This document shows positions 22,141 to 61,371 of a DNA stretch of 64,000 nucleotides, piece by piece. This stretch comes from Somniosus microcephalus. Its lineage: Eukaryota. The first letter of the stretch is position 1, and each line of letters begins with the position of its first letter. The stretch spans positions 77,562,001 through 77,626,000 of the forward strand of contig CM126221.1 in NCBI GenBank assembly GCA_052327205.1, in the 5' to 3' direction. A program made the translations under genes and the position numbers. Under the pieces are notes generated by a model that was given only the letters and a program-made list of their open reading frames with translations, was not told the DNA's origin and made no database searches.

Positions 22141-25100
22141 ATGCCGAAAAGTGGCAGTATCACTGCTTTCGACAACGAGGTAGAAGACTGGACCACGTAT
22201 GTGGAAAGAATTGAAGTGTACTGCAAGGCAAATGAGGTGGCTGATGGAAAGAGGGCGTCGGTATTATTAAATCTGATGGGTGCGAGTACGTACGGCCTAT
22301 TGCGGAATTTAATTACCCCAGCTAAACCAATGGAGAAAAGTTTTGAGGAGATTGTTCATATCTTACAGGAACACCTAAGCCCTACACCACTGCTGATAGC
22401 AGAAATATTCAAGTTCCATAAAAGAAACCAGCACAAAGATGAGAGCAATGCTGACTATCTTACGGAACTACGCAAGTTATCGAAGCACTGCCAGTTCGGA
22501 GCAGGACTGGCAGGCACCTTACGGGATAAGTTGTTTGCGGGCTCCAGAGTGAAGGAACCCAAAAACGACTACTTTCAAAAAAGGAACTGACGCTAGAACA
22601 GGCTTTCAGGATGGCAGTATCCTACGAAGCAGCAGCATGGGGAGCTGTGGAAATACAACAGAAACCACAAGAATACAGCGCTAACAAAATGGCGTATGGA
22701 GCCGAAAAGTGCTATCGCTGCGGCAGAACAACCCATGAGCAGAAGGACTGCTGGTTTAAAGACAAAATATGCAGGCAATGCGGGAAAATGGGACATATAG
22801 CAAGAGTCTGCAGGTCGGGAAAGAAGACCAACACGACAAGAACTGCTAAGGAACAGTACAGGAAAGTAAAAAAACTGACAGATAGTAGTTCAGAAGATCA
22901 GGAGAGTGATAAGGATTCCGGGAGCAGGCGACTAAATTGTTTAAAGTTACACAACGTGATCGCAAAAGAAGATCACCGAACCATTTGGGTCACCCTCATG
23001 ATAGCAAGGTCCCCAGTGAAGATGGAATTGGACACAGGATCAGCCCTAACTCTCATGAATCGACGAGACTATGAGCGGCTATTTTCATACATACCCTTAA
23101 AGGACACGTCCATTGTATTGAAGACATACACGGGGCAAAAGGTCTACCCCAGAGGAAAAATAAGGGTGCCAGTTGAATATAACGGAAAGGAAACACAGAA
23201 ACTATACATGTATATACTACGAGATGGAGGACCACCATTATTGGGACGTGAATGGATCCGAAGACTACAATGGGATTGGCATTCCATTCTGGCACTAACT
23301 GTGACTGACAAAAAAGATGATGACGTTGCACCTGGACGTCTGTCACAAATTCTATCTGACGCGGAAGAGGTGTTCCAACAAGGACTTGGGACTCTAAAAG
23401 GAGTAAAGGCAACCATAAAGATTGAGGATAATGCAACCCCAAAATTTTTCAAGGCCAGACCGGTGCCATACGCGATACGCCCAGCTGTGGAAGCTGAACT
23501 GGAGAGTCTGGAGTGTTCAGGGGTGCTGTCTAAGGTGGACTGGAGCGAGTGGGCCACACCCATCGTTCCTGTAATGAAGAAAGCATTGAGCAGCACGCCT
23601 GGGGAGCCAAGGAAGGTTCGCATCTGTGGGGACTTCAAGGTGACTGTGAACCCAGTCCTGCACACAGTACAGTATCTGCTTCCGTGGATAGAAGATATTT
23701 TCGCCTCGCTATCTGGAGGGAAACATTTTACAAAGATTGACCTGGCTCAAGCGTATCTACAAATGGAGGTGGAAGAAGCATCTAGGAAATACCTCATGAT
23801 AAACACTCACAAAGGCCTTTACCAGTACAATCGACTGGTATTTGGGGTAGCATCGGCCCTGGCTATGTGGCAGAGGGCAATGGAACAAGTCCTGCAAGGG
23901 ATCCCGGGGACCCAGTGTTATTTGGACGACATCCTGGTTACGGGCGAAAATGACAATGAACACCTTGCCAACCTGGAACAGGTGCTCACGAGATTGCAGG
24001 AATATGGGCTACGAGCCAACCGTCCCAAATGCGAGTTCTTCAGGAGACAAATCTCATATTGTGGCCACATGATTGATGAGGAAGGGTTGCATAAGTCGCC
24101 GGACAAGATTGAGGCTGTAGTCAAGGCTCCAGCACCAGAAAATGTGTCGCAACTGAGGTCGTTCCTCGGGTTGGTGAACTACTACCATAAGTTCTTGCTG
24201 AATTTATCTACAATTCTGCACCCACTGAACGCCCTCCTTCAAACTGGTGTAACATGGAAATGGAGTGATGAGTGTAAGCGTGCCTTTCAGGAATGTAAAT
24301 GCCAAATCACTTCAAAAGAAGTATTGGCCCACTACAACCCAACACTATCGATTCGGTTGGCATGTGATGCGTCACCTTACGGCATTGGAGCGGTGCTGTC
24401 ACACAAATTCTGTGACGGTTCAGAGAGGCCAATAGCCTTTGCATCGCGCTCGCTAACCTCAGCCAAGCGTAACTACGCCCAGATTGACAGGGAGGCCCTC
24501 AGCCTGGTGTGGGGGGTGAAGAAGTTCAATCACTATCTGCACGGGCAGAAATTCACCCTACTGACTGATAATCAACCCCTAGTCTCAATTTTTAACCCAA
24601 AGAAGGGCGTTCCGGTGATGACTGCGCAACGGCTACAAAGATGGTCACTTTTTCTAGGGGCACATCAGTATGACATAGGGTACAAAGGTACGAAACAACA
24701 TGGAAACGCTGATGGGCTGTCGCGCCTACCGTTGCCTACGGCGGAAGAAGCACCTGCAGTGGACCCTGTGGAGATATTCCATGCGACCATAGTCGAATAT
24801 TTGCCTGTTACAAACGCAAGTATTGACAAGGAAACCCGAAATGACCTGACACTCTCTCGGGTCTATGATTTGACGGTGAAGGGATGGCCAGCATATGGCG
24901 ACTCACTGTTGCCAGCATTCTCGCCAAGGAGGGAACAGCTGTCAGTGTGCCGGGGAACCCTGATGTGTGGATCCCGAGTGGTAATTCCACCCAAGTTGAG
25001 AGATAGAGTACTCAATGAGCTTCACGAGGGTCATCTGGGAGGGGTAAAAATGAAGAGCCTAGCCAGGGCGTTTGTGTGGTGGCCGGGAATCGATCAAGAA

Positions 25101-26093
25101 ATCGAGGATATGACCAAGAGATGCACAGGATGCCAGAAGGTCCAAAACGCTCCACCACAGGCCCCGCTACATCCATGGGAGTGGCCCTCATCTCCATGGC
25201 AACGGGTACACATTGATTTCGCTGGTCCATTTATGGACTCAATGTTTCTAATTGCTGTGGACGCCCATTCGAAATGGCCAGAGGTCATTAAAATGTCCTC
25301 CACCACCACAGAGAAAACTATTGCAGTCCTAAGAACCATCTTCGCCAGGAATGGGTTGCCAGAACAGATCTGTTCCGACAATGGCCCATAGTTTGTGTCT
25401 GAGGATTTCCGGAGGTTCCTGAAGAATAATGGGGTGAAACATTACACATCTGCCCCATATCATCCAGCCACAAATGGATTGGCTGAGAGGTTTGTTCAGA
25501 CCTTTAAAAAGGCCATAAAGGCAATGTATAATGACGACATACCACTGCAACACAAGGTGGATAACTTCCTGTTTGCTTACCGGAAAGCAACACATGCAGT
25601 AACCAACCAAACTCCAGCCGTACTGTTTTTCAACCGGAGACTAAGATGTCGCTTGGATTTGCTCAAACCAAACATAAGACGAGATGTTGAGGATAAGCAG
25701 TTCCAGCACATAAATGAGAAGCCAACCAGGAGCTTCAAGATAGGGCAACCAGTCTTGGCCCGCGACTACCGAACAGAAAAATGGCAGCCAGGCACGATAT
25801 GCACACAGCAGGGACCACTAATGTACACAGTGGACGTTGGAGAGAGCATCGTGAGACGCCATGCTGACCAGATTCTAGAGTCACAGGAACAAGCCAAACC
25901 TGTACCACAAGCATGTGCACCTGGTAATGAGCCCGAAGTACAGATTGCGTCTACCTCAGAAGCAGGGGTATTGGAAGCTGACGAACCAACCAATGACAAT
26001 GAGCCAGAATTGACTCCACCGCCAGAACAGGATACTCGAGAAAGGCGCTATCCAGTCCGGATCAGGAAGCCTCCTCAAAGGCTGAACTTATAA
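22141..26093 (+). pseudogene. gag-pol polyprotein of Gypsy 1 (1 frameshift, 1 stop)
   Basis: Two CCHC knuckles (CYRC..H..C, CRQC..H..C), LDTGS, YLDD, DAS RNase H, HEGH..CTGC and D-D-E integrase; frameshift ~22535; TAG 25389-25391. Confidence 0.93.
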
Positions 26094-33848: not shown

Positions 33849-34015
33849 GTTCATGTCCATGTTTCCATGTTCGCAGGCAGCGCAAGGAGCGCATGTCAAC
33901 CCTAGCACCCCACCCACCCGTCCCTTCAACTACCGTCTACCCCACCTGTGACAGAGACTGTAGGTCCTGCATTGGACTCATCAGTCACCTGCGAACTTAT
34001 TTTTAATGTGGAAGC

Positions 34016-34161
34016 CCTTTCCTTGGATCGCCACCTTGTCGTGGTGGAGAGGCTTGTGTGAACCTATGAACCTGTGAGCAATGCCATCGGGAGCACAGCT
34101 CTTGGCAGGGTCAACCAAGGCGGTAAGGTCAAGGGGGAGGTTCCAGACGAAGTGCAATCCA
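34016..34161 (+). ncRNA. Candidate HDV-like self-cleaving ribozyme at the RTE 5' end
   Basis: P1 CCTTTCC/GGAGAGG, P2 GGATCGC/GCAATCC, P3 ACC/GGT, L3 TTGTCGT, J4/2 CGAA; P1 starts at the first base after the TSD. Confidence 0.72.
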
Positions 34162-36983
34162 TACCAAGTCCTCAACGGTGGAACAGGTGGCTGGCGGTGG
34201 TAACTCTGAGTCACTTTGGTTCTGCGAGAAGCACCACAACGGCTGTGAAGGCAGAAGAAGGCTGCAGCAGAGAGGGGTCTCCAGTCGTCTCGGTTTTTCC
34301 TTGCCACTGGACCCTGGCCCCTTTTCTGTCAAGGATCGTGTGGTGGCTGGCTGTGCACCAACCACCCCACGCTAAAAGATACCACGCACAGGCGTCCTTC
34401 AGAGGGATCTACATTTACCTCTACAACACGCCGGCGTAAAGTCCTGTGGCGATCAGTAAGTGGTGATGGGGGCAGGATTGTGAGGTCTGGAAGCTCCTAA
34501 TCACAAGCTGGCACACTAGGCGGTGGGTGTCTGATTCAGTCGTCGGGCTCCAGGATCGAGGCAGGGGAGCCCCCCGGCAGCTACATCCACGACTGAGCAG
34601 CCCTATTTAGGATCCGCTCTGCTCACCCTGAACAGGGAGGGGGCTAGAAAAGGTGCCCCAAAAATAGCATGCCACAATAACACCCTGTCTGGAATACCGC
34701 ATCCAGAGGGGTCACCAAAATGCGGTCCTAAAGACAGAAAATTGAACTTCGGAGCATGGAATGTGCGGACACTAGTAGACAGTGCAACAAATGATCGGCC
34801 GGAGAGAAGGACGGCCATCGTATGCAGAGAGCTGAAACGATGCAACATTGATATAGCGGCCCTATCTGAAACTCGACTAGCAGAAGGTCAACTGAAGGAG
34901 GAGAAGGGGGTTTACACATTCTGCTGGAAAGGGAAGCCAACGGAAAACCCCTGGATCCATGGAGTTGGATTTGCCATCAAAAATGAACTTGTTAGCCAAC
35001 TCTCCGAATTTCCTGTGGGAACCAATGAACGCCTCATGAAAATGCGTCTAACCCTATCCAACAATCAGATGGCAACAGTTGTGAGTGCGTATGCTCCCAC
35101 CCTGGATTCGCTAGATGAAGTAAAGAAGATCTTCTATGCTGACCTGGCTAAAACCTTGTCTGGTATCCCAAAAGACGATAAAGTCATTCTTCTTGGGGAC
35201 GTCAATGCCAGGGTCGGTTGGGATTACCAACTATGGAAAGGCATCATAGGAAAAGAGGGCATCGGAAAGTCCAACTCAAACGGACTACTTCTTCTCACTA
35301 AATGTGCTGAGCACAACCTCAATCACAAACACTTTCTTCCGACAAAAAAACAAGTACAAAACCTCCTGGAGGCACCCCCGCTCAAAACTGTGGCATCTCA
35401 TTGACTATGTCATTGTACGGGCAAGGGATCGTCGTGATGTTCTGGTCACTAGGGCCATGTTCAGCACTGATGACTGCTGGCCAGATCATCGCCTTATCCG
35501 AGCAACTATGTCCCTCAAACTAAAGCCCAAGATACGTGCTTAGAAGAAGCAGTTATGGCCAAAATTAAACATTGAATGTCTTGAGGACACTGCCATACAG
35601 CAGTGCTTTCAGGATTCCATCAGGCAAAGTCTTCCAAAGGAATACCCACATGATACTGGAGAACATTGGGAACTGCTGAAAGCCACTATCCTCAACACCT
35701 CCCAGAACATACTCGGTTTCAAGTCCAGGAAACATCAGGACTGGTTTGATGAGAACGACTCAGAAATTGAGCAGCTCATAGAAAGGAAAAGGAAAGCTTT
35801 CTGCACCTGGCAAAACAACATCAGCAGCAAGGCCAAAAGAGAGGCTCATGCTAGAGTTAAGGCAGATGTCCAGCAGAGAATAAGGGAGATGAAGAACAAC
35901 TGGTGGTCTCAAAAGTCCCTAGAAATACAACATATGGCTGATACTGGGGACTCCAGAGGCTTCTTCAGTGCCACCAAGGCAGTTTTCGGACCAAGCTACC
36001 GTGGCTTAAACCCCTTACGCTCTAAGGACGGTTTAACTCTGCTCAAGGACAAGGAGGCAATTGACACAAGATGGAGGGAGCATTTTCAAGAACTGCTCAA
36101 CCGACACAGTAGCGCAGATCTGGAGTCCATCAATCAATTACCGCAGAGACCAGAAAGGGAGGAAATGGGGGCACCCCCAAGCATTGTAGAAGTGCAGAAT
36201 GCCATCAGGTCCATGAAAAACAACAAAGCTGCCGGCTCAGATGGGATTCCAGCAGAAATCCTTAAAAAAGGTGGCCCTGAGCTCCTGACACACATACATG
36301 CCTTCCTCCTAAAAATATGGCAGCAGGAAGAAATTCCACAAGATCTCAGAGACGCTTTGATTGTTACTATCTTTAAAAAGGGGGAAAAGTCAGTGTGTGG
36401 TAACTACCGAGGTATCTCCCTTCTTTCTTCCACAGGAAAAGTGCTTGCCCGTGTCCTTGCTAACAGACTTTTGCCGTTATCTGAGGAGGTGCTTCCGGAG
36501 TCGCAGTGTGGTTTCCAACCATCCAGAGGAACAGCTGATATGATCTTCACAGCACGTCAATTACAGGAGAAATGTCGTGAACAAAAGCAACCACTGTTCA
36601 TAGCTTTCATAGACTTAACTAAAGCTTTTGACACCGTCCACCGCCAGACTTTATGGCATATCTTGTCTAAGCTTGGTTGCCCCGATTAATTCATCTTAGT
36701 TCTGAGGCTGCTACATGACAACATGTCCGCAGCAGTTCTCAGCAGCAGCGGTTCTATTTCAGAGCCCTTTACAGTTGAGACAGGAGTAAAACAGGGCTGC
36801 ATCATTGCTCCAACCCTTTTTGCAGTGTTCATCTCAGTTATCCTCCATCTCATCGGCAATGATCTGCCCACCGGAATTCAAATCCTTTACCGTACTGATG
36901 GCCGACTTTTCAATCTCAACAGGCTTAAGGCCAAGAGCAAAGTCTCCATCACTACCATTATGGAGTTAAAGTATGCAGATGAT

Positions 36984-39900
36984 TGTTATGTCCGTGTATC
37001 TTAATGTTGTGTCCTTCAATAATCAGACAACAGTCTGCAGGGAACGATTCAACAGGTGTTTACTGAATGAGGGTTACTCTAGAACTAACTTTACAGATCA
37101 CTACTCAGGGTTTATATACAGGTGTGGTCACTGCCGGTACTACAGTATACAGGAGCTGTAAAAAGTAGTTCTCTCCCTTAAGGTATATATACATTACATA
37201 CATTACAATTCCTCCTCTTTTAGATTAACAGTACCATAATACTCATTTAACAATTAACATTTTTAATATACAATGTTATATGAAAATAGTCCATTCATAT
37301 ATTCAGTCTCTGGGGAGGCTTCCTGATTCTTTCTGGATAACGCCTTTCCCGAGTGTCTCGCTCTTGGTGCGGAGGCGATTCTAGCACCCTGTCGTCAGTT
37401 GATTCATCAGCTTCTAATGCTATTGTTTCTGAGGTAGATGCGACCTGTACGTCGGGTTCCTCACCAGGTACGTATGGCCGAGACATGGGGTTGACTCGTT
37501 CCTGTGACTCTAGGATCTGGTCAGCATGGCGTCTCACAATGTTCTCACCAACATCCACTGTGTACGTTAGTGGCCCCTGCTGTGTGCATATCGTTCCTGG
37601 CTGCCATTTTTCTGTTCGGTAGTCGCGGGCCAAGACTGGTTGCCCTACATTGAAGCTCCTTGTTGGCTTCTCATTGATGTGCTGGAATTGCTTACTCTCA
37701 ACATCTCTTCGTACATTGGTCTGAGCAAATCCAGACGAGATCTCAACCTTCGGTTAAAGAACATCATGGCCGGGGCCTGGTTGGTGACTGCATGTGTCGC
37801 ATTTCTGTAGGCTAACAGGAAATTGTCCACCTTATGCTGCAGTGGAATGTCGTCATCGCACATGGCCTTTACTGCTTTTTTAAAGGTTTGTACGAACCTC
37901 TCAGCCAATCCATTTGTGGCTGGATGATACGGGGCGGATGTGTAATGCCTTACCCATTCATTTTCATAAATCTTCGAAACTCTTCGGACACAAACTGTGG
38001 TCTGTTATCAGAGCAAATCTGCTCTGGCAAGCCGATCCTGGCAAAAATGGTCCGTAGGACTGCAATAGTTTTCTCCGTGGTGGTGGAGGACATTTTGATC
38101 ACCTCAGGCCATTTTGAGTGCGCATCCACGGCTATTAAAAACATTGAGTCCATGAATGGACCAGCAAAATCAATATGCACCCTTTGCCATGGAGATGAGG
38201 GCCACTCCCATGGGTGTAGAGGGGCATGTGGTGATGCATTTTGGACCTTCTGGCATCCTGAGCAGCTCTTTGTCAGGTCCTCGATTTGCTGATCGATCCC
38301 CGGCCACCACACATAAGCCCTAGCAAGGCTTTTCATTTTCACACCTCCCAGATGACCTTCGTGAAGCTCATTGAGCACTCTCTCCCTTAACTTGGGTGGA
38401 ATTACCACTCGGGATCCACACATCACTGTCCCCTGGCATACTGACAGCTGTTCTCTTCTGGATGAGAATGCCAGCAACAGTGAGTCGCCATGTGCTGGCC
38501 ATCCCTTCACCGTCAAATCATATACCCAAGACAGTGTCGGGTCATTTCGGGTCTCCTTCTCTATACCAGCGTTAGTTACTGGCAAGCATTCAATTATAGT
38601 CGAATGAAATATTTTGACAGGATCCACTGCTGGTGCTTCCTCCGCAGTAGGCAGTGGCAGGCGTGATAGCCCATCAGCGTTTCCATGCTGTTTCATGCCC
38701 TTATACTCGATTTCATATTGGTGCGCCCCTAGAAAAAGGGACCATCTTTGTAGCCGTTGCGCAGTCATCACCGGAACGCCCTTCTTTGGATTAAAGATGG
38801 AGACAAGTGGTTGGTGGTCAGTCAGCAAGGTGAACTTCTGCCCGTGCAGATAGTGATTGAACTTTTTCACTCCCCACACTAGGCTGAGGGCCTCCCTGTC
38901 AATCTGGGCGTAGTTACGCTCGGCTGAGGTTAGTGACCGAGACGCAAAGGCTACTGGGCTCTCCGAGCCGTCCGGGAATTTGTGCGACAGCACCGCTCCA
39001 ATGCCATAGGGTGATGCATCACACGCCAACCGAATTGGTAGTGATGGGTTGAAATGAGCCAACACCTCTTTTGATGTGATCAATGCTTTGCTCTTCTGGA
39101 AAGCTCGTTTACATTCATCACTCCACTTCCATGGTACCCCCATTTGCAGTAGGGTGTTCAGTCGGTGTAGTACGGTAGACAAATTCGGCAAGAACTTATG
39201 GTAGTAGTTCACCAGCCCGAGGAACGACCTCAGTTGTGACACATTTTCCGGTGCTGGAGCCTTGACTACTGCCTCAATCTTTTCAGGGGACTTATGTAAC
39301 CCCTCTTTATCAATAACATGGCCACAATACGAGATCTGCTTCTGGAAAAACTCACATTTGTGGCGATTAGCTCGGAGCCCATATTCCTTCAATCTAGTGA
39401 GCACCTGCTCCAGGTTGGCGAGGTGATCACTGTCATTTTCACCCATGACCAGGATGTCGTCCAGATAACACTGGGTCCCTGGAATCCCTTGCAGGACTTG
39501 TTCCATTGCCCTTTGCCAAATAGCCGGAGCTGATGCTACCCCGAACACCAGCCGGTTGTATTGGTAGAGACCTTCATGAGTGTTGATCGTGAGGTACAGT
39601 TTCGAGGCTTCTTCTACCTCCATTTGCAGGTACGCCTGGGCCAGATCAATCTTAGTGAAGCGTTTCCCTCCAGATAGCGAGGCGAAAATATCTTCAATCC
39701 GCGGAAGCGGATATTGTACAGTGTGAAGGACTGGGTTCACTGTCACCTTAAAGTCCCCACAGATGCGAACCTTCTTTGGTTCCCCAGGCGTATTACTCAA
39801 CGACCTCTTCATTACAGGAATGATGGGTGTAGCCCACTCGCTCCAGTCCACTTTGGACAGTACTCCTGAACGTTCCAAACCTTCCAGCTCTGCTTCGACG

Positions 39901-42116
39901 GCTGGGCGGATCGCATAAGGTACCGGTCTGGCCTTAAAAAACTTTGGGCTTGCATTTTCCTCTATTTTGATCATCGCTGTTATGCCTTTTAGTGTTCCGA
40001 GTCCCTGCTGGAACACTTCTTGTGCGTCAGTTAGCATTTTTGACAGTCGTCCAGGTGTGACGTCGTCATCCTTTTTGGCATCTACAGTCAGTGCTTGTAT
40101 GGAATGCCAATCTAGCTGTATCTTCCGGATCCATTCACGTCCTCCATCTGGCAATACATATAAGTCCATTTTTGGTGTTTCCTTGCCGTTATATATAAAG
40201 TTCACCCTTATTTTTCCTTTGGGGTAGACTTTTTGCCCCATGTATGTCTTCAAGACAATCTTTGTATCTCTCAAGGGTATATGTGAGAATAGCCGCTTGT
40301 AGTCCCTTCGGTTTATGACTGTAAGGGCTGATCCTGTGTCCAATTCCATTTTCACTTGGACTCCTGCTATCTTGAGCGTGACCCAGATAGTTTGGTGATC
40401 CTCCGTTTTGATCACATTATATAGTTTCAGACAACCCAGCTCCTTGCTTCCGGAGTCTGTATCACTCTTCTGTTCTTCTGAACTACTCTCCGTCACCTTA
40501 TGTACCTTCTTGTACTTCTTCTGTGGAGATTTCTTGCTGCTGGTTTTCTTTCCCGACCTGCAGACTCTTGCTGTGTGTCCTACTTTTCCACACTGTCTGC
40601 ACACTTTGTCCTTGAACCAGCAATCATTATGGTCGTGTGTTGTTCTGCCGCAGCGATAGCACTTCACTGTTCCGTATGACATTTCATTTGTGCCATATTC
40701 TTGCGGTCTCCGTTGTATCTCTGCAGCGCCCCGTGCTGCTGCTTTGTGTGATACTGCAATGCTGAAAGCCTTGTCCAGCATAAGATCCTTTTCTGATAGA
40801 AGCCGTTTCTGGGTTCCTTCACTTTGAAGCCCACACACAAACTTGTCCCTTAAAGTATCTGCTAGTCCCGTTCCAAACTGGCAGTGTTTCGATAGCTTGC
40901 GCAGTTCCATTAAATACTCAGCATTACTTTCATCTTTATGCTGGTTCCTTTTGTGAAACTTAAATCTTTCTGCTATCAGCAGCGGTGTGGGGTTTAAGTG
41001 GTCCTGTAGGATTGACACTATGTTTTCAAAATCCTTTTCTACTGGCTTCTCTGGGGTTACTAGGTTTCGTAGTAAGCCATACGTTTTTGCACCCATTGAA
41101 TTCAACAATACCAGCGCTTTCTTGTCATCTGGCACTTCATTCGCCTTGCAGTATACTTCTATGCGTTCGACATATGTCGTCCAATCTTCGACTTCATTGT
41201 CGAACGCTGTGATACTGCCACTCTTCGGCATTTTTGGGTGTGGTTAGACTGGCTTAAAATGGCGTCTCCCGTGCTTTCCTTTCTTCCCCGCTGCGGCTTA
41301 AAATGGCATCTCCTGCGCTGCTGCCAATGCCGCTCTCGGCGGTCCTCGTGGCAAATGGCGACGCCCTGTGCGTTTCGTGTGCTGCTCCTGCACTGCTGCC
41401 AACACCGTTCTCTGCAGTCCTCGTGGCAATGGCAGCGCCTCGCGTTTTCCTGCACGCCTCTCTCCCCCGTTGACGCTGCTCGGCCCTTGAACACCGGCTG
41501 CGCTCTGCTCTCTCTCGTCTCTCCCCCCCATTGACGCCGCTCGGTCCTGAACACCGGCTGCGCCCTGTGCGCTCTGCCCTCTGTCTCTCCCCCGTCGACG
41601 CTGCTCGGCCTTTTTCTGTGCCGCTTGGTCGGGTTCTAGCCCACCGCTGTCCGGGAAGGGTCTGCGCAGTACCTGTTGCCAGCCCGTTTTGCTGGACCAC
41701 CGTGACTGGAAAGCCAAGCCTGACTCTCGACAGCCTCCCCTGCGATGCTCAAATCTCCGCTGGATGACTGGGCGGTTGCCCATGGTCGACGCCCGTGCTT
41801 CTGGAATCGACCTTCTTCCACCGTTCTCCAGGAGCGAATCCCTGGGAGGTGATGCAGAGTTGCAGGTAGGTTCGAATCTGCGTCGTCGCCAATGTTATGT
41901 CCATGTATCTTAATGTTGTGTCCTTCAATAATCAGACAACAGACTGCAGGGAACGATTCAACAGGTGTTTACTGAATGAGGGTTACTCTAGAACTAACTT
42001 TACAGATCACTACTCAGGGTTTATATACAGGTGTGGTCACTGCCGGTACTACAGTATACAGGAGCTGTAAAAAGTAGTTCTCTCCCTTAAGGTATATATA
42101 CATTACATACATTACA
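36984..42116 (-). mobile_element. Gypsy (Mag-like) LTR retrotransposon 2, full length
   Basis: 224-bp LTRs 36984-37207 and 41893-42116 differing at 2 sites; TSD ATGAT/ATGAC; PBS TGGCGACGAC; PPT AAAAGAGGAGGAA. Confidence 0.97.
37295..41231 (-). pseudogene. gag-pol polyprotein of Gypsy 2 (1093-aa open, two frameshifts in integrase)
   Basis: Same motifs as Gypsy 1; frameshifts ~37950 and ~37715; PPLLG deleted in the protease region relative to Gypsy 1. Confidence 0.93.
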
Positions 42117-44366
42117 ATGACAACGCCATCACAGCTCTTTCCGAGCATGATCTACAAAACACCTTGAATGCTTTTTCCAGAGCCTACAAACTTCTGGGCC
42201 TCACCATGAATATAAAGAAGACCCAGGTGCTCCACCAGCCATCACCTAATCAGCTTGCAACTCCTCCCTCTATAAAGATTGATAATAACACCCTTGAAAA
42301 TGTCAACACCTTTCCATATCTTGGTAGCCATTTATCCTCCAAAGCTGACATTGATTCTGAAATCCATCTCCGTCTGAGTTGTGCAAGTGCAGCCTTTTCT
42401 AAACTGAGGAGGAGAGTCTTTGAAAATCATGACCTCCAAGTCCAACCTAAAATTTTTGTATACAAAGCCATCATCCTTCCCACCCTGTTATATGGAGCTG
42501 AAACCTGGACTACGTACAGTAGACATCTTAAAGCCTTAGAGCAATACCACCAACGCTCTGTACGCAAAACCTTGAGGGTCAGCTGGGAGGACAAGCATAC
42601 CAACTGGAGTATACGTGAAGAGGCCAATATCTACAGCATCACGACGCTCATCGTGCAGCATCAACTCCGATGGATTGGACATGTCATTCGCATGCCAGAC
42701 TCACATCTCCCAAAACAGGTTCTGTACTCCCAGTTGAAGGAAGGGCAGAGGTCTCCTGGTGGTCAAAAGAAGCATTACAAAGATAACATCAAAGTAATCC
42801 TTAAAAAGTTCCATATCGATATTAATAACTGGGAGGAAATCGCACTGGACAGAGACAATTGGAGAAAATGCATCCACAACGGGGCCGCACTACATGAAAA
42901 GAATCTCCAGCGTGCCGCTGAGGATAAACGCCAGCGCCGTAAGGAGAGACAACAACTTAAGAAGACCCATACTCCAGTTACTACCAATAGTCTTACATGC
43001 CCACACTGTAGTAGAGTCTGTGGATCTCGGATTGGCCTCCACAGCCACCTGAAGACCCACAAGTAGATGACTGATGAAGGACATACCATACTCGAATTCG
43101 AGTGACCGCTGATGATGAATGTGGAAGCAAGTCATCCTTCCGAGGGACTGCCTAAGAAGAAGAAGAAGAGTTTCCAGGTAGTCATGGAAGGTTCCCTTTA
43201 CCATTTGCATAGTTGGCCAGTGTTTTTTGGACGGACTCTAGATTTAGTCTTTGGTTCGCCCATATGCTTCACAGAAAGCCTGCCAGGAAACAACACTGAC
43301 ATGTCCATGGTGATGTCTATGTGCAACAGCATTCTGACTTACCTGACCAAGGAGCGCGTTGTGGATTCAGCAACTAACTTAGGGAGTGAAGTGAGACCAT
43401 AACAGATGTATTGTTTAATCTAAATAGATAACTGCGAGTACATGTTGTTTTTCTCTTATGTAAAATACTGTTATTACTCACACACAGCAGTGCTAGTTAA
43501 TTATAGGTCTGCGAAGAGTCACTGGTAATACACTGCCATCGCTGTCAGAGCCACCATTTCTTTGTCTTTGAAGTAGAAATATTTAACTTGCAGCACATTG
43601 AAGGGAATATGTTATTTCAAACGTGACATTTTTAAAGGGAAAAGTAGTTTGTGGAGGCAATAAAATGCATAATTAAAAATAATCTATTGAGTAAACATGT
43701 TTACAATGAATTTTCGCATTTATTTTCTGTTTTCAATTTTTGTGACAAAAACTTATATCCTTCCAAATAAAGTTACCCATTTTGTTAAAGATGAGTTAAG
43801 GAAGATCACAATGGCCATTGAACCGGTCATCACAATATAGAGCAGGAGTTGGAAAGACAAACAGACCTATAGAATAAAAAATAGAAGGAACAGGTCAAGT
43901 CCAAAAGGGAGCGATTTTCTCAAAGTCCAGCAAAGGGTGGAGCAGTAGTTCACAACATCTCGAGGTGCTTCAGGAAGGGGTGTGGTATTCCAGCCTCAAG
44001 GAAAAGCTGGCCTCTTGGGTGATGTCTAGTCAGCTGCTGAACTGGCGGTTTCCCTCAGTAGATGCAAACATCACGTTATTACAAATGGGGATTGTTTCCT
44101 TATCGAATACTTATACAGGAGTACCTCAGCGAAGTATGCTTGGCCCCACTCTGATTGTTGCCTTCATCAGTGACGTGGAAAATGTCATGAGAGTGACATC
44201 NNNNNNNNNNNNNNNNNNNNNNNNNNNNNNNNNNNNNNNNNNNNNNNNNNNNNNNNNNNNNNNNNNNNNNNNNNNNNNNNNNNNNNNNNNNNNNNNNNNN
44301 NNNNNNNNNNNNNNNNNNNNNNNNNNNNNNNNNNNNNNNNNNNNNNNNNNNNNNNNNNNNNNNNNN

Positions 44367-61111: not shown

Positions 61112-61371
61112 CTATCTTCTATGTTTCTATGTTTCTATACTGAATTTTTCCCCCAAAGTGATTAAACGAGGTGAGTGAAATAAGAAACAAGAGAGAAAAA
61201 CATCAGAGCCGAAGGACAGGCTAGGCCCAAATAAGCGTTCTTTATACAAACGCACGGAGTGTATGGAATAAATTGAATGAACTGCAGGCACAAATTCAAC
61301 TTGAAGGGTATGACATGGTGGCCATTACTGAGACATGGCCGCAAAATGGTCAGGATTGGGAACTAAATATA

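Follow-up and report, generated by a model that had tools for sequence, protein, structure and literature searches.

Non-LTR retrotransposons of several kinds (RTE, R2, L1Tc and Baggins) carry at their 5′ ends HDV-like ribozymes that share a nested double pseudoknot, a 5′ end at the first base of P1, the sequence C-N-A-A in J4/2 and a large P4. Cleavage in the HDV-like class falls at the first base of P1 (PMC4908430), and for RTE elements it has been reported at the element's 5′ end (PMC3774820). The window, by which we mean the whole 64-kb stretch of DNA that was analyzed, contains a LINE whose 5′ end shares the pseudoknot layout, the position of the first P1 base, the C-N-A-A sequence and the large P4. 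In one described ribozyme, drz-Agam-2-1, the helix at the P4 base is continuous and holds no k-turn, whereas the base of P4 in the window is interrupted by one. The +1 position also differs: drz-Agam-2-1 has a G there, while the subclass to which the window belongs has a C paired with G, together with a 1-nt bulge in P2 after the first pair and no Rfam match.

The motif in P4 has its closest likeness in k-turns from other settings. H. marismortui Kt-7 and the k-turns of RAGATH-18, drum and HOLDH RNAs have the same C-stem, 3-nt bulge and tandem G·A/A·G pairs, and drum and RAGATH-18 also share with the window a C:G pair at −1b:−1n and A:G at 3b:3n (PMC8191799). Compared with standard k-turns, the motif lies inside a mobile-element ribozyme, takes eight forms at 3b:3n among 15 representatives and often has a U at L1. 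T. thermophilus Kt-23 has an A·U at 2b:2n that is shared by 5 of the 15, but in three of them the next pair, 3b:3n, is a Watson-Crick C:G, whereas non-canonical pairs follow in Kt-23 (PMC2790904). Among eukaryotic RNAs, the Box C/D and U4 k-turns bound by SNU13/15.5K and the described intronic 15.5K-bound ktRNAs and klRNAs have a protein partner that supports RNA accumulation, and U at L3 is common here too (bioRxiv 2026.08.03.742641). Unlike Box C/D k-turns, however, the window motif lacks C and D boxes with U·U at 3b:3n; that pair is A·G in the window (U·U in 2 of 15), and the motif lies within an arm of a ribozyme, away from the ends of the RNA.

A k-turn has been placed in P4 by design. 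An engineered L7Ae-binding tag in the P4 loop of drz-Agam-1-3 was reported to be compatible with function (bioRxiv 2026.10.01.755752); that tag is artificial and distal, whereas the window motif is natural, at the P4 base and conserved. We found no natural k-turn in a retrotransposon ribozyme in a literature search that lay largely outside the subscription journals, and the primary RTE-ribozyme papers (Ruminski 2011, Webb 2009) may draw such a loop. Neither "k-turn" nor "kink" appears as a term in PMC6765202, PMC13708176, PMC4908430, PMC3774820 or PMC4513843; "kink" is likewise absent from PMC5786205, whose supplement contains no oligonucleotide with a consensus k-turn and gave nothing in a search with the ribozyme core.

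The predicted ribozyme and its LINE

The LINE spans 34016..43117 on the forward strand, where all features below lie unless a strand is given. An 11-bp target-site duplication at 34005..34015 directly abuts the element's first base and has an identical copy at 43118..43128. The host sequence is a short repeat (33900-34015 and 43129-43160) that is abundantly transcribed, hundreds of reads deep in both of two RNA runs from a related organism, and reads of this flanking repeat depart from the window sequence past 34015. The architecture is that of the RTE clade: a single ORF with AP endonuclease and reverse transcriptase, a short tandem-repeat tail and a target duplication. Full-length relatives of the ORF are about 1,050 aa long and up to 70% identical over the query among the 120 homologs listed; these bear no clade names, and the label RTE/BovB-type is one we assume from the architecture.

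The ORF is broken. Its first part (34535..36983) encodes the endonuclease (PF03372) and reverse transcriptase (PF00078), and its 3′ part, a short 3′ UTR and a tail of TGA repeats occupy 42119..43117. Between them, and not part of the k-turn finding, lies an LTR retrotransposon (36984..42118, −) with protease, reverse transcriptase, RNase H and integrase domains, whose 226-nt repeats are 99% alike, indicating a recent insertion into the LINE. It is one of two gypsy-like LTR retrotransposons in the window, the other being at 22530-26093 (+), and a further reverse transcriptase ORF of 605 aa, from another LINE, lies at 59301-61118 (−). The LINE ORF has no in-frame AUG at its start, and a UUG at 34742-44 occupies the position of the relatives' starting Met; an out-of-frame AUG ORF of three codons (34720-31) lies upstream of it. 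This copy is dead as a coding element, while its k-turn bases are intact.

Positions 34016-34160 can form the nested double pseudoknot of HDV-like ribozymes, with P1, P1.1, P2, P3 and P4. The 5′ strand of P1 (34016..34022) pairs at all seven positions with 34046-52, and the element begins with C34016, at which cleavage is predicted (+1). The 5′ strand of P2 (34025..34032) pairs with its 3′ strand (34152..34160), with U34153 bulged and a C34029·A34156 mismatch in the window copy. P3 and L3 fill 34033..34045 (P3, 34033-35/34043-45; L3, 34036-42). The 3′ strand of P1 and J1/4 follow at 34046..34054, J1/4 being 34053-54, and a single-pair P1.1 joins G34038 to C34053. P4 covers 34055..34147, and J4/2 (34148..34151) consists of the putative catalytic C34148 followed by G-A-A. 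At its exact 5′ end, then, the window element is headed by a predicted HDV-like ribozyme. We took 30 copies from at least 40 matches in the element's own genome; 22 of them start at the equivalent of C34016 with any base upstream, seven lack the first 1-3 bases and one lacks eight.

To find relatives we scanned with a pattern of 22 letters covering only P3, L3, the 3′ strand of P1 and J1/4, and including no letter of P4. The metagenome scan gave at least 115 loci from 5 of 64 collection parts, and we estimate about 1,700 such stretches overall. Sixty-eight of 116 core matches parse as complete folds; the 48 unparsed matches include many that are cut by contig ends. The parser's rule for P2 was altered after inspection of the data, and all counts are those of the second parser. 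Conservation of the P3/L3 core among the matches reflects how they were selected, since that core served as the search pattern. P1.1 was G-C in 95 core matches, A-U in 17, G-U in 3 and unpaired in 1, all four combinations being permitted by the pattern. Two loci with a core match but no match to model R1 (L238, L240) were set aside.

The +1 base is a C paired with G in 67 of the 68 parsed folds, the G partner being fixed by the search pattern. The HDV ribozyme has a G at +1, and a purine is usual there; the folds found here lack this usual, though not absolute, feature. The subclass (the window at 34016 and L033-L147) usually has a single bulged nucleotide following the first pair of P2. C34148, A34150 and A34151 of J4/2 are invariant in 15 of 15 representatives, many of which were selected by a parser that required C-N-A-A, and both P2 and P4 covary. 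No Rfam family matched the window at gathering scores, and near the site the only matches were two weak and unrelated ones; an unconstrained fold of 34000-34200 did not yield the ribozyme (z = +1.38). RNA starts showed no pile-up at the ribozyme in the two RNA runs from the related organism, where coverage is only a few reads deep and too thin to bear on cleavage either way. A search with model R1 found no second ribozyme in the window, and when the own genome was searched by pattern for ribozymes of other families, the matches numbered 1, 1 and 0 and revealed no new family.

The k-turn motif at the base of P4

An earlier, sequence-only reading of the locus had described in P4 a C-stem, a 3-nt bulge, tandem G·A/A·G pairs and a third A·G pair, and each of these is where it placed them. 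The bulged strand (34060..34073) runs from the C-stem (34060-64) through L1-L3 (34065-67, U-A-U) to G1b (34068), A2b (34069), A3b (34070) and the NC stem (34071-73); the non-bulged strand (34133..34143) comprises the NC stem (34133-35), G3n (34136), G2n (34137), A1n (34138) and the C-stem (34139-43). The non-canonical pairs are thus G34068·A34138, A34069·G34137 and A34070·G34136, followed by pairing of 34071-73 with 34133-35. By sequence, the motif is that of a k-turn in the P4 of an HDV-like ribozyme fold that heads an RTE-type LINE.

The reading had also outlined the rest of P4, and there it needed correction. The domain is indeed about 90 nt long and holds the k-turn, but it begins at 34055 and not one base earlier, since 34053-54 are J1/4 and C34053 pairs with G34038. 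Its distal hairpin exists but has 6 bp (34089-94/34098-103), as C34088 pairs better with G34119 in 8 of 8 representatives with a long P4. The TGCC/GGTA helix does not hold at its outer end, where G34083-U34124 is broken in 6 of the 8, and a third small hairpin (34108-10/34114-16), which covaries, was absent from the description. The distal domain of the long-P4 class (34075..34131) consists of a helix with a G·G mismatch (34075-79/34127-31), a second helix (34083-88/34119-24) and hairpins at 34089-103 and 34108-116; in long-P4 families generally it combines a 6-bp hairpin, a 3-bp hairpin with a 3-nt loop and a conserved purine-rich joint. Across P4 of the eight long-P4 representatives, 16 of 29 pairs show double changes and 91% of cells are paired. 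Short-P4 families have a simple hairpin in place of this domain.

The window sequence alone would be weak evidence for a k-turn; it is the sequence comparison that excludes chance. The strict k-turn descriptor fits 47 of the 68 complete metagenome folds (48 if A is allowed at 1b) and 103 of 10,000 shuffled P4s, leaving 21 of the 68 that fail it. One family supplies 52 of the 68 folds, so families are the fairer counting unit. Together with three own-genome copies, the folds form 12 single-linkage families, of which eight have the strict motif, one has the variant with A1b and three are without (L065, which is degenerate, and L073 and L094, whose P4s are 23 and 15 nt long). L073 (1457-1532) is a complete fold in which a loop closes the C-stem of a 23-nt P4 and there is no k-turn, a natural deletion control. 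The tandem G1b·A1n and A2b·G2n pairs are present in the window and in 29-30 of the 30 own-genome copies, but these copies are 94-97% alike and we therefore did not count this conservation as selection. In prokaryote genomes, 28 of 29 core matches do not parse as ribozymes. The one that does, L162 (302-450), comes from a bacterial genome bin, in a contig of 596 bp; it has a long P4 and a k-turn, and is a true homolog that is probably a eukaryotic contaminant.

We aligned 15 hand-picked representatives with MAFFT on sequence only: the window, members of the parsed families (the large one contributing three), L136 from the A1b family, L162, and L092 and L143, which were included though they fall just short of the parser. 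L073 and L094 were omitted because they have no room for the motif. Outside the search pattern, median identity was 52% (range 36-86%), and only 7 of 77 ungapped columns were invariant, namely the catalytic C, the two J4/2 adenines, A2b, A1n and the 4b:4n C-G pair. The bulge of 3 nt was kept in 15 of 15 sequences, as the sequence-only reading had expected, and G1b in 14. The stems covary across relatives, as it had also expected: all five C-stem pairs show double changes, and over the seven k-turn stem pairs 92% of cells are paired, six pairs carry double changes, and covariation scores 0.61, compared with 0.22 when shuffled and at most 0.125 when slid. Kinship inflates the shuffle test, and sturdier measures based on pair counts were matched in 500 shuffles only three times and once. 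When the set was thinned to 11 or 9 sequences, with identities under 70% or 65%, G1b, A2b, A1n, the 4b:4n pair and three J4/2 bases were invariant, although thinning drops L136, the exception with A1b. Unguided RNAalifold on the eight long-P4 sequences returned the identical 6×3 loop between identical stems, with the distal helix and both hairpins.

We considered whether P4 might instead hold a conserved internal loop of some other geometry, or a relic passed down by descent. Shuffled versions of the window P4 fold as well as the original (z = −0.43), its minimum-energy fold pairs U34065 with A34138, and all families may share one ancestor. Conservation nevertheless follows the k-turn rules from position to position, in sequences whose overall identity is about 50%, and in L070 the 6×3 loop between two perfect stems is itself the minimum-energy fold (z = −4.5). 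We regard a loop of another kind as very improbable, and the comparison indicates with high confidence that the P4 motif would form a k-turn.

Variation of the kink and its possible partners

The expectation that both G·A pairs would be invariant did not survive the comparison. G1b·A1n is present in 14 of 15 representatives, while 2b:2n is A·G in ten and A·U in five, and one family has A1b with U2n in all four copies seen; an endonuclease ORF lies downstream in this family, and in L034 (698-1002) two of its ribozyme copies stand in tandem ahead of that ORF. The Kt-7-type layout holds for the window's own family, the only one of the 15 representatives with A·G as the third pair. Elsewhere 3b:3n takes other forms, eight in all, including Watson-Crick C:G in three representatives and U·U in two. 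The −1b:−1n pair is C:G in 11 of 15, L3 is U in 10, and L1 is U in 6, where a purine is usual. L7Ae-family sites prefer a U at L3.

We give a probability of about 0.45 to the reading that the P4 k-turn, conserved with covarying stems in distant retroelements, kinks the RNA and docks a host L7Ae-family protein on the uncapped transcript. The fold begins at the element's first base, from where it would, by analogy with known HDV-like ribozymes, cut the element out of a read-through transcript to leave an RNA with a 5′-OH. By comparison among families, the k-turn stands at the base of P4, one 5-bp C-stem and 3-5 nt from the core, whatever lies distally. With C:G at −1b:−1n, G at 3n and A:G at 3b:3n, the window k-turn is predicted to be of the N3 class and to fold in Mg2+ alone (rules of PMC8191799). 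SNU13/15.5K, eL30, eL8 or a related protein would then bind the kink, and the resulting RNP could protect the RNA and hand it to translation or to the element's enzyme.

The variation bears on this reading in both directions. Four of the seven invariant columns are k-turn positions, the C-stem covaries, the invariant k-turn letters persist in the thinned sets of 11 and 9, and L3 is most often the U that such proteins prefer, all of which are in keeping with protein docking. So are the three representatives with C:G at 3b:3n, a pair that gives poor folding without protein under rule 1 of PMC8191799 and that should make these k-turns dependent on a protein. Against docking, L7Ae contacts the guanines of the G·A pairs, G1b and G2n (PMC3884654), yet 5 of 15 have U at 2n and one family combines A1b with U2n; L1 is U in six; and 21 of 68 folds and the families L065, L073 and L094 fail the descriptor. 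The +1 base is a C, unlike the G of HDV and drz-Agam-2-1, and self-cleavage is here a prediction.

The main rival is an architectural role, in which a k-turn folded by metal ions bends P4 towards the core or the 5′ end and aids folding or shields the 5′-OH with no protein involved. The two invariant adenines are those that make the cross-strand contacts of the kink (PMC8191799), A·U at 2b:2n is a known ion-folding variant, as in Kt-23 (PMC2790904), and both the C:G at −1b:−1n and the G at 3n of the window favor ion-induced folding. That the adenines are better conserved than the guanines contacted by L7Ae argues for selection on the kink itself; folding is well supported, and binding by an L7Ae-family protein is only likely. 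On the other hand, the distal arm is wholly different in long- and short-P4 families, the spacer to the core differs by 1-2 nt, and the kink is kept while the distal P4 shifts from a multi-helix domain to a plain hairpin, so that no shared fold-back partner is apparent. Three of the 15 have a Watson-Crick 3b:3n, P4 is said not to contribute to catalysis (bioRxiv 2026.10.01.755752), and that of R2 has been called highly variable (PMC3774820). We consider an architectural role without protein possible but doubtful.

Carriers of the module and what it may do

The largest family, with 52 copies, is a non-coding element. Its 38 tail-bearing copies have a median length of 306 nt and a longest AUG ORF of 25 aa at the median and 73 aa at most, and 27 of them have flanking direct repeats of at least 7 nt. 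These loci (L035, L037, L064, L070 and 48 others; 227-367 nt) are SINE-like, with a ribozyme start, a 5-nt tandem tail and target duplications. Their P4 of 48-49 nt is a plain hairpin beyond the kink and is unrelated to the long distal P4; the strict descriptor fits 36 of 52, with A2b in 51 of 51 and A1n in 50 of 52. Retention of the motif in these short non-coding copies is consistent with protein docking, and it means that translation of the element's own ORF cannot be the whole role.

Among loci with at least 450 nt in view, a reverse transcriptase profile found downstream coding sequence in only four metagenome loci (L034, L099, L105 and, marginally, L108), so the link to RTE elements is shown for some families only; L043, L083, L108, L143 and L162 have no clear coding link within the contig view. 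L096, L099 and L109 resemble internally deleted LINEs and keep the k-turn. These derivatives and the 52-copy family could suggest that the element's own reverse transcriptase/endonuclease uses the kink as a handle, in template recognition or 5′-end joining, and in bipartite non-autonomous RTEs the 5′ end is usually still the original one (PMC5786205). This retention would be explained equally well by a need for the ribozyme, however, and a sister family with a closely related protein has no such module; we judge this role unlikely.

That sister family occurs in the own genome (G000; L201 and L206-L237, the longest leaders being in L224, L225 and L237). It matches the window's 5′ UTR only from about 34263 onward and has upstream of this a different, pyrimidine-rich leader, which we take to open with a YY1-like site, and neither ribozyme nor k-turn. 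An internal promoter may have taken the place of the ribozyme in this family. The comparison rests on two protein searches of the own genome, covering 60 loci of 300 matches, with nine dropped as duplicates or for lack of the motif. The start codon was AUG in 27 of 27 sister-family copies and UUG in 23 of 24 window-family copies scored. The joint absence of ribozyme and k-turn from a family that starts at AUG rather than UUG accords with protein docking, but the sister family has multiplied without a k-turn, and the AUG/UUG contrast is that of a single pair of families.

The same contrast would be expected if the specific role of the kink were in cap-independent translation from a non-AUG start, through contact with the ribosome or with one of its L7Ae-family proteins, and retrotransposon HDV-like ribozymes have been proposed to have IRES-like activity (PMC6765202). 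Such a role sits poorly with retention of the motif in ORF-less elements, unless the kink only brings them to ribosomes, and with a start some 600 nt downstream of the kink, and we think it improbable, more so than the enzyme handle.

Folds with the same core also occur in viral contigs of 113 and 67 kb (L032/L241, 1481-1539; L239, 1484-1558), where P4 is minimal or a plain hairpin and there is no k-turn, a distribution that again fits a docking role for the motif in the retroelements. L032 has a second, weak model match at 742-799, and no tRNA lies within 1.5 kb of this locus. A protein-first scan of viral contigs found no relative.

Taken as a comparison of sequences, the ribozyme with its k-turn is a genuine structural module that has been conserved; both parts are known, and we found no description of their combination. 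While P4 of HDV-like ribozymes is generally treated as dispensable or freely variable, the k-turn here is as conserved as the catalytic strand. The family offers a natural and varied set of k-turns for folding rules, with eight pairs at 3b:3n, A·U at 2b:2n and A at 1b. As 5′ ribozyme folds already serve as protection in RNA-based gene insertion (PMC13708176), a compact 5′ module of this kind may be of use there. The finding bears on how uncapped, ribozyme-processed LINE RNAs survive and get translated: a k-turn points to a small set of candidate host factors, and two-base changes in it should spare cleavage. More speculatively, and we hold this to be rather unlikely as a whole, a widespread class of animal LINEs, with their non-coding passengers, may carry a natural ribozyme-plus-k-turn module. 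Self-cleavage would free the RNA, and the kink would bind a host L7Ae-family protein, from snoRNPs or the ribosome, that stands in for a cap, stabilizing the 5′-OH RNA and licensing non-AUG translation; in sister families a promoter and an AUG would replace the whole module.
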